A stretch of DNA of 64,000 bases, taken from the NCBI GenBank assembly GCA_038087875.1, contig CM075987.1, positions 26,972,001-27,036,000 of the forward strand, in the 5' to 3' direction. Positions 1,060-10,718 of the stretch are shown here, piece by piece (positions within the stretch are counted from its first letter, which is position 1; every line of letters begins with the position of its first letter). This DNA comes from Malacoraja senta (taxonomy: Eukaryota). The position numbers were made by a program, and so were the translations under genes. Below the pieces are notes generated by a model, which was given only the letters and a program-made list of their open reading frames with translations, was not told where the DNA came from and ran no database searches.

Positions 1060-1223
1060 TGTTACTCCCAAGCCTTTCCTGACGTCCTCTGAGTGAGGGC
1101 TACATGTATATATGTATGTAGTTTGTTTTGTTTGTGCTTTTCTTATAACAAATGTAAAGCACTTTGGCCAACGAGAGTTGTTTTTTAAATGTGCTATATA
1201 AATAAATGTGACTTGACTTGACT
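1060..1223 (+). mobile_element. L2-type LINE 3' tail
   Basis: TGTAAAGCACTTTG..AAATGTGCTATATAAATAAA plus (GACTT)n tail; near-identical copy on minus strand at 54241-54420. Confidence 0.65.
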
Positions 1224-1224
1224 G

Positions 1225-1420
1225 TTCTTCTTCTTTTCGTGTCCATCTTGTTACAAATGTTAGCCTCGCTGTCATCGTCCGTCCTGAAAAGGACCGCGAG
1301 CTTCCGGCGACAATCAGTGGAAGCCATCACTTGTCGCAATAGATGATGGTGGTAGCAGAATTAGCTCAGGATACTTCCAGTTTCCAGCCCCGCGACGTGG
1401 ACGCTTCTGCTATGGGGGCC
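1225..1420 (-). mobile_element. 196-bp non-autonomous retroposon headed by an HDV-like ribozyme (Ingi/Vingi-like, inferred)
   Basis: Flanked by GACTTGACT direct repeats (1215-1223, 1421-1429); 3' end GGACACGAAAAGAAGAAGAA; 5' nucleotide is ribozyme G1. Confidence 0.7.
1353..1420 (-). ncRNA. HDV-like (CPEB3-type) self-cleaving ribozyme
   Basis: Minus strand GGCCCC CA UAGCAGAA GCG UCCACGU CGC GGGGCU GG AAACUGGAAGUAUCCUGAG CUAA UUCUGCUA: P1 6 bp with G1.U, P2 8 bp, P3 GCG/CGC, P1.1 CC/GG, weak P4, J4/2 CUAA with putative catalytic C at 1364. Confidence 0.85.
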
Positions 1421-1922
1421 GACTTGACTATGATTTCACTACAATTGACATTCTTGGGTGTGACCACTAGTTGAATTTGCTACCAATCAGACACATCTTC
1501 AGTTGTGTTGCTCATCGTCACTGGGTGTATCGACAAGACACCCTCAGTCGAGGCAGGCCCACCGCAGGTTGATCAGACCTGGGTGTGTGTCTTATTGTTA
1601 GCCTCTAGATGGTCAAGTGGCAGCCCAGACAGCATCTTTCTGGGCTGCCACATGGCCATCTAGAGTGTCTCCAGCATTTTTATCTATCTTCATCAGATGA
1701 GGAGGTCTCCAATTCCTCAAACTCTCATGGCTTCAGTAAATAAATCACCTTTCCAATTCCAGTAAATCCTCGTTATAATGCGTCGTAGGGAGCGGAATGT
1801 TTCCATGTAGATTACTGTCAGGTGTACCGAGGTACAGTGAAAAGCTCTTGTTGTGTGCGAACCAGACCATGCAATGGTGCCCATTATCGCCGGTTGTCTG
1901 CTATAGAAAGTCATAGAGTAAA

Positions 1923-9016: not shown

Positions 9017-10718
9017 TGTCTTTCAAATGTTTTTACATTTGCAAGATAAAGACTACTTGGTAAGATCTGAGAGATGATGTCTCTTTTTAGAAGCACAATT
9101 TCCATTTTTCACGTAATTCTCAGAGGCCAGAAGTGATTCGATTGAATTCTTCGGAAGGTTTGTTGAAATGAATAAATGGAGTCACTAGAATGGAGGTTAT
9201 TTCTGATTACTCTTGGCCAAGTGTGGTAGACTTCACAACGAGCCAGGGTCTATTATAATTTTCATAATAGAAGGTTTGACTGGAGAGGTGCCTCAGTGGG
9301 AATAGAAAGTAAATATAACAAATGCGCGTCCCTCTGCAATTGGATCCTCGACTTCCTCATTCTCAGACCACAGTCTGTTCGTATTGGTGGAAATGTGTCA
9401 GACTCGATAACAATCAGTACGGGAGCACCTCAATACTGCGTGCTTAGCCCCCTGCTGTACTCACTCTATACTCATGACTGCGTAGCCGGACATAGTGCGA
9501 ACTCCATCATCAAGTTCGCTGACGACACCTCTGTTGTGGGACGTATCACTGATGGGGATGAGTCAGAGTATAGAAGAGAGATCGAGCAACTGTCCATATG
9601 GTGCCAGCACAATAACCTGGCCCTCAACACCAGCAAGACCAAGAAGCTGATTGTGGACTTTGGAAGGAGTAGGATGGGGACCCACAGTCCCGTTTATATC
9701 AACGGGTCGATGGTTGAAAGGGTCAAGAGCTTCAAATTCCTGGGCATGCACATCTCTGAAGATCTTTCCTGGTCCGAGAACAATGATGCCATTATTAAGA
9801 AAGCACATCAGCGCCTCTACTTCCTGAGAATATTACGGAGAGTCGGTTTGTCAAGGAGGACTCTCTCTAACTTCTACAGGTGCACAGTAGAGAGCATGCT
9901 GACCGGTTGCATCGTGGCTTGGTTCGGCAACTTGAGCGCCCTGGAGAGGAAAAGACTACAAAGAGTAGTAAACACTGCCCAGTCCATCATCGGCTCTGAC
10001 CTCCCTTCCATCGAGGGGATCTACCACAGTCGCTGCCTCAAAAAGGCTGGCAGCATCATCAAGGACCCACACCATCCTGCCCACACACTCATCTCCCTAC
10101 TACCTTCAGGTAGAAGGTACAGGAGCCTGAAGACTGCAACGACCAGGTTCAGGAACAGCTACTTCCCCACAGCCATCAGGCTATTAAACCTGGCTCGGAC
10201 AAAACACTGAACTTTATTAGCCAATACTGTTATTTGCACTTTATCAGTATATTGACCATTGTGTATATATTTATAGAATGGTATATGGACACACTGATCT
10301 GTTTTGTAGTCAATGCCTACTATGTTCTGTTGTGCTGAAGCAAAGCAAGAATTTCATTGTCCTATCAGGGACACATGACAATAAACTCACTTGAACTTGA
10401 ACTAATTGCTCTTACCGGCTGATCAACGAACATTTGAACAAATCGTCTGAATAATGCAATATCGTCACTTCTGGCCTCTGTGAATAACGTTAAACATGGA
10501 AATTGTGCTTCTAAATAAAGACATAGTAACAGGAACATAGAAAATAGGTGCAGGAGTAGGCCATTCGGCCCTTCGAGCCAGCACCGCCATTCAATATGAT
10601 CATCCAAAATCAGTACCGCGTTCCTGCTTTCTCCCCATATCCCTTGATTCCGTTACATCATATCTCAGATCTTACCAAGTAGTTTTTTTTCTTGCAAATG
10701 TAAAGAACATTGGAGATA
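9017..10718. repeat. Long inverted repeat (arms ~9017-9170 and ~10431-10718) enclosing the Rex1 insertion
   Basis: TTTACATTTGCAAGA..CTACTTGGTAAGATCTGAGA..TTTAGAAGCACAATTTCCAT..CAGAGGCCAGAAGTGA recurs as reverse complement on the right; the right arm is split by a CR1 tail (~10525-10655). Confidence 0.85.
9323..10403 (+). mobile_element. 5'-truncated Rex1/Babar LINE (RT C-terminal half, open frame to 10210)
   Basis: LCNWILDFL..[34 protein letters not shown]..; 3' UTR ending GACAATAAACTCA(CTTGAA)n. Confidence 0.9.

Follow-up and report, generated by a model that had tools for sequence, protein, structure and literature searches.

A SINE-like retroposon of a cartilaginous fish headed by a predicted self-cleaving ribozyme of the CPEB3 type

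What carries a ribozyme that resembles the one in the mammalian CPEB3 gene in the genome of a cartilaginous fish, and how are the two related? The question is raised by a stretch of 64,000 nucleotides from Malacoraja senta (contig CM075987.1; this whole stretch is hereafter called the window), in the minus strand of which an earlier note, made from the letters alone, had seen a ribozyme of the hepatitis delta virus (HDV) type with a CPEB3-like core at positions 1353–1420. The mammalian CPEB3 ribozyme has been reported to affect memory. It is Rfam family RF00622 and was reportedly described by Salehi-Ashtiani et al. in 2006. PMC8233481 gives it as known from mammals only and, as stated in 2021, without any outgroup. 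Our analysis indicates, with a probability of roughly 85%, that window positions 1224–1420 (minus strand) are a young copy of a non-autonomous retroposon of the non-LTR (non-long terminal repeat) class, similar to a short interspersed element (SINE), which belongs to the cartilaginous fish and whose head is a predicted self-cleaving ribozyme of the HDV fold and the CPEB3 type.

On the minus strand, along which the ribozyme is numbered from G1 (window position 1420), the letters from 1420 to 1353 read GGCCCCCAUAGCAGAAGCGUCCACGUCGCGGGGCUGGAAACUGGAAGUAUCCUGAGCUAAUUCUGCUA. The earlier note had described a complete nested double pseudoknot, and each of the helices that it named is present. P1 (GGCCCC/GGGGCU; 1420–1415 and 1391–1386) comprises 6 bp and begins with a G1·U pair at the predicted cut site; an extra C (1414) follows its 5´ strand. 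P2 pairs UAGCAGAA with UUCUGCUA over 8 bp (1412–1405 and 1360–1353), P3 is formed by GCG and CGC (1404–1402 and 1394–1392) around the loop L3, UCCACGU (1401–1395), and P1.1 by CC and GG (1400–1399 and 1385–1384). P4 (CUGGA/UCCUG; 1380–1367) is weak and contains a U·U mismatch. P1, P1.1, P2, P3 and P4 follow the canonical HDV-like order, and both hallmarks of this fold are present in the predicted structure: a C in J4/2 (CUAA) at 1364, which is ribozyme position 57, and G1 (1420) opposite U (1386). By analogy with the HDV family, C57 is the candidate catalytic cytosine; its column (C63 of the first alignment row) holds C in at least 90% of 22 aligned family members. Cleavage is predicted to occur 5´ of G1.

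In a scan of the whole window with 4,227 Rfam families, RF00622 (CPEB3_ribozyme) alone exceeds its curated cut-off of 35. It scores 36.8 bits at 1354–1431 (minus strand), with an E of 3.5e-6 over the 64 kb. A permissive scan of 1150–1500 (E ≤ 10) added a single row, a 13-bit match to a long non-coding RNA (E 6), and no match to the other HDV-like families, tRNA, 5S or 7SL. The HDV-like models without a match include the mosquito drz-Agam models. Our own model R1, whose seed contains this copy, scores it at 68 bits and matches nowhere else in the window. Counted by hand against the CPEB3 consensus printed by cmscan, the window copy is identical at 19 of 20 positions across P2-P3-L3-P3´ and at 11 of 12 across J4/2-P2´, which are the counts given in the earlier note.

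The ribozyme does not stand alone. It heads a retroposon of ~196 nt (1224–1420, minus strand), the first base of which is the predicted cleavage site. A target-site duplication of 9 bp, AGTCAAGTC, lies upstream (1421–1429) and ends at the base before G1; the same 9-mer follows directly after the tail (1223–1215). Between them, the ribozyme is followed by a body without evident coding capacity (1244–1352) and a 3´ tail, GACACGAAAAGAAGAAGAA (1225–1243). The tail is identical (19/19) to the last 19 nt of a long interspersed element (LINE) of the same genome, here called LINE A (L061, 3215–3233), and is presumed to be the recognition site of the LINE reverse transcriptase.

A search of the 1.94-Gb assembly with window 1150–1450 (minus strand) yielded 2,338 rough first-look candidates for the element. 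All 39 of the other scored copies are 95–98% identical to it over ~190 nt and no further. The aligned copies, which are dispersed over many contigs, start at GGCCCC, end in ...GACACGAAAAGAAGAAG(AA) and have unrelated flanks. Of 30 copies, 28 could be parsed for target-site duplications (L032/L033 and L037/L038 are duplicate loci), and an exact duplication of 6–13 nt, mostly 11–12, follows the tail and ends at the base before G1 in 24 of the 28; imperfect duplications were recognized by eye in three further copies. The differing flanks and duplications contradict segmental duplication as the source of the copies. A 22-mer specific for the element was counted 365 times in the genome, against none for the reversed sequence, and the element is present in all four sequencing runs examined, which derive from at least three organisms (coded A, D and F). 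The 3´ end shared with a LINE, the target-site duplications and the dispersed copies mark a LINE-dependent non-autonomous retroposon, and the earlier view that the ribozyme is borne by a retroelement is thereby substantiated. The element is not a SINE in the strict sense, with a head derived from tRNA, 5S or 7SL and an internal polymerase III promoter, as no such match was found in the permissive Rfam scan; it is called SINE-like because its head is a ribozyme. A different and far commoner repeat (1150–1221) adjoins the 3´ duplication, with a summed contig depth about ten times that over the element in one DNA run (X1).

The partner LINE carries a head of the same kind. Eight loci of family A are 95–98% alike from the first base of the ribozyme for more than 1.5 kb, and two longer copies align over 3,142 nt with 98.2% identity. 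LINE A starts at G1 of its own CPEB3-like ribozyme, and its single open reading frame (ORF) begins ~110 nt behind that base; in one copy the ORF is intact and encodes 934 amino acids with RVT_1 (E 3e-32), Exo_endo_phos and Exo_endo_phos_2 domains. A near-perfect target-site duplication flanks the copy L062 and ends directly before GGGGATC. RTE elements are typically ~3.2 kb long, with a single ORF for an apurinic/apyrimidinic endonuclease and a reverse transcriptase, short untranslated regions and a tail of short repeats instead of poly(A). LINE A, with ~3.1 kb, one ORF and an (AAG)n tail, is RTE-like by this build. Proteins ~50% identical to its ORF occur in aphids, amphioxus, sea urchin, fish and lizard, under automatic names only. 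The SINE-like element is not a simple internal deletion of LINE A, because blastn finds likeness between the two only in the ribozyme core (17/18) and the tail, and none in the body. A LINE with the SINE-type head was sought in this genome with a 38-nt pattern, modelled on a metagenomic relative described below (L108), at up to three mismatches, and gave no match. Across 338 kb (the window and the collected loci), model R1 found the expected central matches and, beyond these, only two partial repeats in L011. Both repeats (1592–1621 and 1670–1699, minus strand) correspond to the initial ~30 nt of the LINE A ribozyme; they lie 78 nt apart and upstream of the full head at 1498–1573, as a short tandem array of 5´ ribozyme halves.

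These features suggest how the element might move. Because it has no recognizable polymerase III head, it would be transcribed within longer host or read-through transcripts. The ribozyme would then fold into the nested double pseudoknot and cut 5´ of G1 (1420), using C57 (1364) and a divalent ion, and the cut would free an RNA that starts exactly at G1, as the fold and the ends of the genomic copies suggest. The endonuclease and reverse transcriptase of the RTE-like partner LINE would recognize the shared 3´ end, GACACGAAAAG(AAG)n, and copy the RNA into a nicked target, leaving target-site duplications of 6–13 bp; such mobilization in trans is what the shared tail points to. Homologous ribozymes occupy the same place in the partner LINE, in at least four other short families of this genome and in related LINEs elsewhere.

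The families of this genome were collected with RF00622. Genome-wide, the best match reaches 64.2 bits; among the 59 matches scored, 51 have E ≤ 0.001 and 39 exceed the cut-off, and the best of them belong to repeat families other than the SINE-like element. In a scan of seven loci, six reach the cut-off (59.7, 59.7, 51.4, 48.2, 47.7 and 43.7 bits), and the sister families as a whole score 43.7–64.2 bits. Thirty of these loci, together with the SINE-like copies, fall into at least six families that share the core AGCGUUCACGUCGCG, or a sequence close to it, and have different helices. Behind P2 stands an ACCAC-type stretch. The exact 15-nt core was counted 1,004 times across the assembly, against none for the reversed sequence; compared with this count and the 365 occurrences of the SINE-specific 22-mer, the 102,231 first-look candidates for RF00622 greatly overstate the copy number.

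Family A, the LINE, has the P1 GGGGAUC/GAUCCCU and the P2 GGUAGAA/UUCUACC, and shares a run of 18 letters with the CPEB3 consensus. In family B, P1 is GGGGGUC/GACCCCU and P2 is GUAGAA/UUCUAC, with a P3 of GCA/UGC in L005; in family C, P1 is GGGGGCC/GGCCCCU (5´ strand from L014, 3´ strand from L016) and P2 is AGCAGGA/UCCUGCU; in family D, P2 is AGAAGGA/UCCUUCU. In families B (L005, L009, L013), C (L012, L014, L016, L022, L025) and D (L015, L018, L024, L026), the likeness ends 30–45 nt past the ribozyme. These elements would then be only ~100–125 nt long and consist of a ribozyme with a short tail; their copies are older, and a search for target-site duplications gave none that were clear. In a DNA search with family C, the 39 other scored matches cover only positions 112/116–586 of the query, which represent an unrelated abundant repeat adjoining the query copy. 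Family E (L021, L023, L027–L030; for example L021, 1498–1554, minus strand) is a second SINE-like element of ~175 nt with the tail GGACTCGATAAGAAG. Its P1 is GGGGUC/GGCCCC and its P2 GGAAAGA/UCUUUCC, and its head is a minimal HDV-like ribozyme without P4, in the place of which stands a linker of 6–7 nt. Its target-site duplications end directly before GGGGTC, so that the copies start one base short of a G·U-closed P1 of 7 bp; this suggests either that P1 has 6 bp, is closed by a G-C pair and leaves the U unpaired, or that the copies lack the first G of their master.

Across the families, P1 to P4 keep pairing by compensatory change. In a plain MAFFT alignment of 22 members from the six families, 85.8% of 485 cells are paired, compared with 36–47% when the partners are slid; both sides change in 17 of 25 pairs, and none of 500 shuffles reached the covariation score. 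In a second set of 64 matches (53 distinct rows) aligned to model R1, 86.0% are paired, compared with 35–45% for slid partners, and both sides change in 20 of 25 pairs. Since the sequences are related and the model used to select them encodes P1 and P3, P2 and the slid controls provide the fairer tests. P2 crosses P1 and is not encoded as pairs in R1; it is 97.5% paired, with changes on both sides in five of seven pairs.

Relatives of LINE A outside this genome were sought in metagenome contigs, where 80 of 433 confirmed relatives of its protein were kept. Model R1 (E ≤ 1) matched nine of the 80 loci, and every one of these matches precedes the ORF on the coding strand; the strong matches come from five loci, which represent three distinct elements. 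One element, found in three contigs (L108, L109, L110), has a broken ORF and 51% protein identity to LINE A. The head of L108 scores 55.6 bits with RF00622. By hand count, it has the letter of the CPEB3 consensus in 35 of the 37 positions that start at G1 and take in both P1 strands, the 5´ strand of P2, P3 and L3, and in 11 of the 12 across J4/2-P2´. Its P1 and P2 are letter for letter those of the CPEB3 consensus, and its L3 (UCCACGU) and J4/2 (CUAA) are those of the SINE-like element in the window. The duplication of L108, ATCATCCGAGTCTT, runs up to the first G of the element, which closes with the tail GAGACACGAA. The best protein match to the longest open fragment of its ORF is 70% identical, and one at 56% is named from a brittle star. 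Two relatives with 53% (L091) and 38% (L100) protein identity to LINE A have weaker heads with other P1 and P2 sequences (31 and 26.5 bits with RF00622). Eight further loci with ample upstream DNA (L089, L092, L093, L105, L111, L128, L146 and L150) gave no R1 match at E ≤ 1, and all of them except L111 gave no ribozyme in the Rfam scan at E ≤ 0.01. Such LINEs may be 5´-truncated or use another head; twister variants are mentioned on RTE elements in PMC7761336. The reverse transcriptases of L086 and L087, both of which lack the 5´ end, are 86% identical to that of LINE A, and these loci are presumably host DNA of related fish.

Several observations weigh against a working CPEB3-type head on an RTE-mobilized element. 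P1 has 6 bp in the SINE-like head and 7 in other families of this genome, P4 is weak in the window copy, and this copy has the additional C (1414), common to three of 30 aligned copies. A majority-type copy of the element (L036) falls below the RF00622 cut-off, which the window copy reaches. The nested-fold energies of four heads resemble those of shuffled sequences (z +0.43, +0.66, −0.61 and −1.06), a comparison that is uninformative because the program cannot represent pseudoknots. The assignment of LINE A as RTE-like is drawn from its architecture alone. In poly(A) RNA from a related organism (X22), reads of both orientations lie on the element and cross its 5´ boundary, and no pile-up of read starts at G1 is listed in this one raw run; a poly(A) library is ill suited to 5´-OH ends. 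The 6-bp P1, the weak P4 and the lack of a listed pile-up could mean that the head is a relic that does not cleave, and that the uniform 5´ ends of the copies mark a start of transcription or a structural stop of the reverse transcriptase. The copies of family E, which begin one base short of the canonical site, also fit a relic, since they show that element ends need not equal the canonical cut site in every family. Yet in the SINE-like element, LINE A and L108, the first base is the G that closes P1 opposite a U despite differing P1 sequences, the compensatory changes speak for a fold under selection in the master copies, and no polymerase III head was found in the Rfam scan of 1150–1500. 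We consider a relic improbable. The suspicion of the earlier note that this copy in particular may be impaired by its short P1 and weak P4 is not supported, as both are traits of the whole SINE-like family and its sole difference from that family within the ribozyme is the extra C.

The second issue is whether the CPEB3 likeness reflects descent. The window copy and the mammalian ribozyme have in common the nested double-pseudoknot layout, the P3 of GCG/CGC and an identical P2, and their L3 and J4/2 differ by one letter each. In contrast, the window copy has a 6-bp P1 of another sequence, two C-G pairs in P1.1 and a weak, unrelated P4; the element is also multi-copy with target-site duplications, lies outside a CPEB gene and belongs to a cartilaginous fish. 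It is not the orthologue of the single-copy intronic ribozyme, as its copy number, its duplications and its host indicate, and matches to the CPEB zinc-finger domain lie on contigs C2259, C2128, C15 and C17, while the window is on C11. Nor is it an insert related to deltaviruses: its context is a retroposon, and at E ≤ 10 there is no match to HDV_ribozyme or to another HDV-like family of Rfam. That the likeness arose by convergence within the HDV fold, without shared descent, is a doubtful explanation, but one with some weight. The fold leaves little freedom in L3, P3 and J4/2; at least seven different P2 sequences occur in the families seen, one of which could match CPEB3 by luck; and the SINE-like copy barely passes RF00622 (36.8 against 35), which L036 fails. 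However, the likeness reaches parts that the fold leaves free. The agreement of L108 includes every letter of P1 and P2, and family C (L012) is identical to the CPEB3 consensus at ~54 of 67 positions (~81%, hand count), including six of seven P4-stem pairs; the absence of matches to other HDV-like families also speaks against convergence. Each CPEB3 state of P1, P2, P3, L3 and P4 occurs on some element of the RTE-like lineage. The reverse transcriptases of the carriers (L100, L108, L091) are only 38–53% identical to LINE A, which suggests that the head is old within the lineage and would agree with a CPEB3 ribozyme derived from a head of this kind. The opposite course, in which a retroelement took up the ribozyme from a CPEB3-like intron of a host and then spread, possibly between species, is compatible with the occurrence of ~50%-identical proteins in animals as distant as aphids and lizard. 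The divergence of the carriers speaks against it, as does the report of the ribozyme from mammals only (PMC8233481); neither is decisive, and the direction of transfer is read solely from the depth of the LINE lineage. We regard this course as very improbable. On balance, we lean slightly towards the view that mammals gained their CPEB3 ribozyme by exaptation of a retroposon head from this RTE-like lineage. Its source may have been an element of ~100 nt like family C, a ribozyme with a short tail, which would have left no other trace of a transposon. The kinship suggested in the earlier note has thus gained strength from the sister families (up to 64 bits), the P4 stem and the 35 of 37 positions in L108, and stops short of proof: descent from this lineage is plausible on sequence grounds but unproven. 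This is the one vertebrate genome searched for CPEB3-like heads.

As HDV-like heads have been reported on non-LTR elements, the kind of arrangement is already known. HDV-like ribozymes with a cut at the 5´ junction of the element are described from RTE, R2, L1Tc and other LINEs, baggins among them, and from certain non-autonomous elements (PMC6765202, PMC3774820 and PMC7761336); these reviews refer to Ruminski et al. (2011) and to Eickbush and Eickbush (2010). The present heads resemble them in the exact 5´-end position, in a cleavage site at the first base of the element and in the presumed release from a co-transcript, and differ in their CPEB3-type sequence and vertebrate host; the carrier in the window is moreover a non-autonomous element of 196 nt instead of a LINE. 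A close parallel is NARTc of Trypanosoma cruzi, a non-autonomous partner of L1Tc that retains the L1TcRz ribozyme (PMC3383444). It is likewise a short element with a 5´ HDV-like ribozyme that depends on a ribozyme-bearing LINE, but the LINE clade and the host are others. Here, the heads of the SINE-like element and LINE A differ in P1, P2, L3, J4/2 and P4, and the body has no likeness to LINE A. Family E, a sister family of the window copy, recalls with its 6–7-nt linker the minimal HDV-like ribozymes without P4 (microbiome and theta ribozymes; PMC10879173), and differs from them in residing in a vertebrate retroposon and not in a phage.

Two further observations concern other parts of the assembly. 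At window positions 9296–10210 (plus strand), an open frame of 304 amino acids resembles, by its translation, the C-terminal part of the reverse transcriptase of a different LINE. The mitochondrial genome is present both as a separate contig (C6182) and, in contig C2915, as a head-to-tail concatemer with a period of 16,723 bp (COX1 at 10356, 27079, 43802 and 60525), which is probably an assembly artefact of the circular molecule. COX1 also marks the host as a cartilaginous fish: it shares 96% identity with a sequence cluster (formed at 90% identity) represented by an angel shark and 94% with one represented by a requiem shark, and bony fishes and tetrapods come next with 86–94%.

Searches of the full-text literature gave no publication in which ribozymes of the CPEB3 type are connected with RTE elements, SINEs or cartilaginous fish; these searches did not extend to Webb et al. 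(2009), Webb and Luptak (2011) and Ruminski et al. (2011), and earlier priority is possible. A retroelement lineage whose ribozyme is similar to that of mammalian CPEB3 in sequence, and not in fold alone, was not found in print. The present one adds a vertebrate example of a short retroposon in which a ribozyme takes the place of the polymerase III head, and its main interest lies in providing relatives of the CPEB3 ribozyme that are non-mammalian and borne by retroelements. If the mammalian ribozyme was exapted from this lineage, the families of this genome and L108 may be its first outgroups. Were the kinship true, the origin of the CPEB3 ribozyme would become testable, the reconstruction of its ancestor would gain outgroups, and the families would provide a natural series of active-looking variants, with a P1 of 6 or 7 bp, one or two P1.1 pairs, and P4 present or absent.
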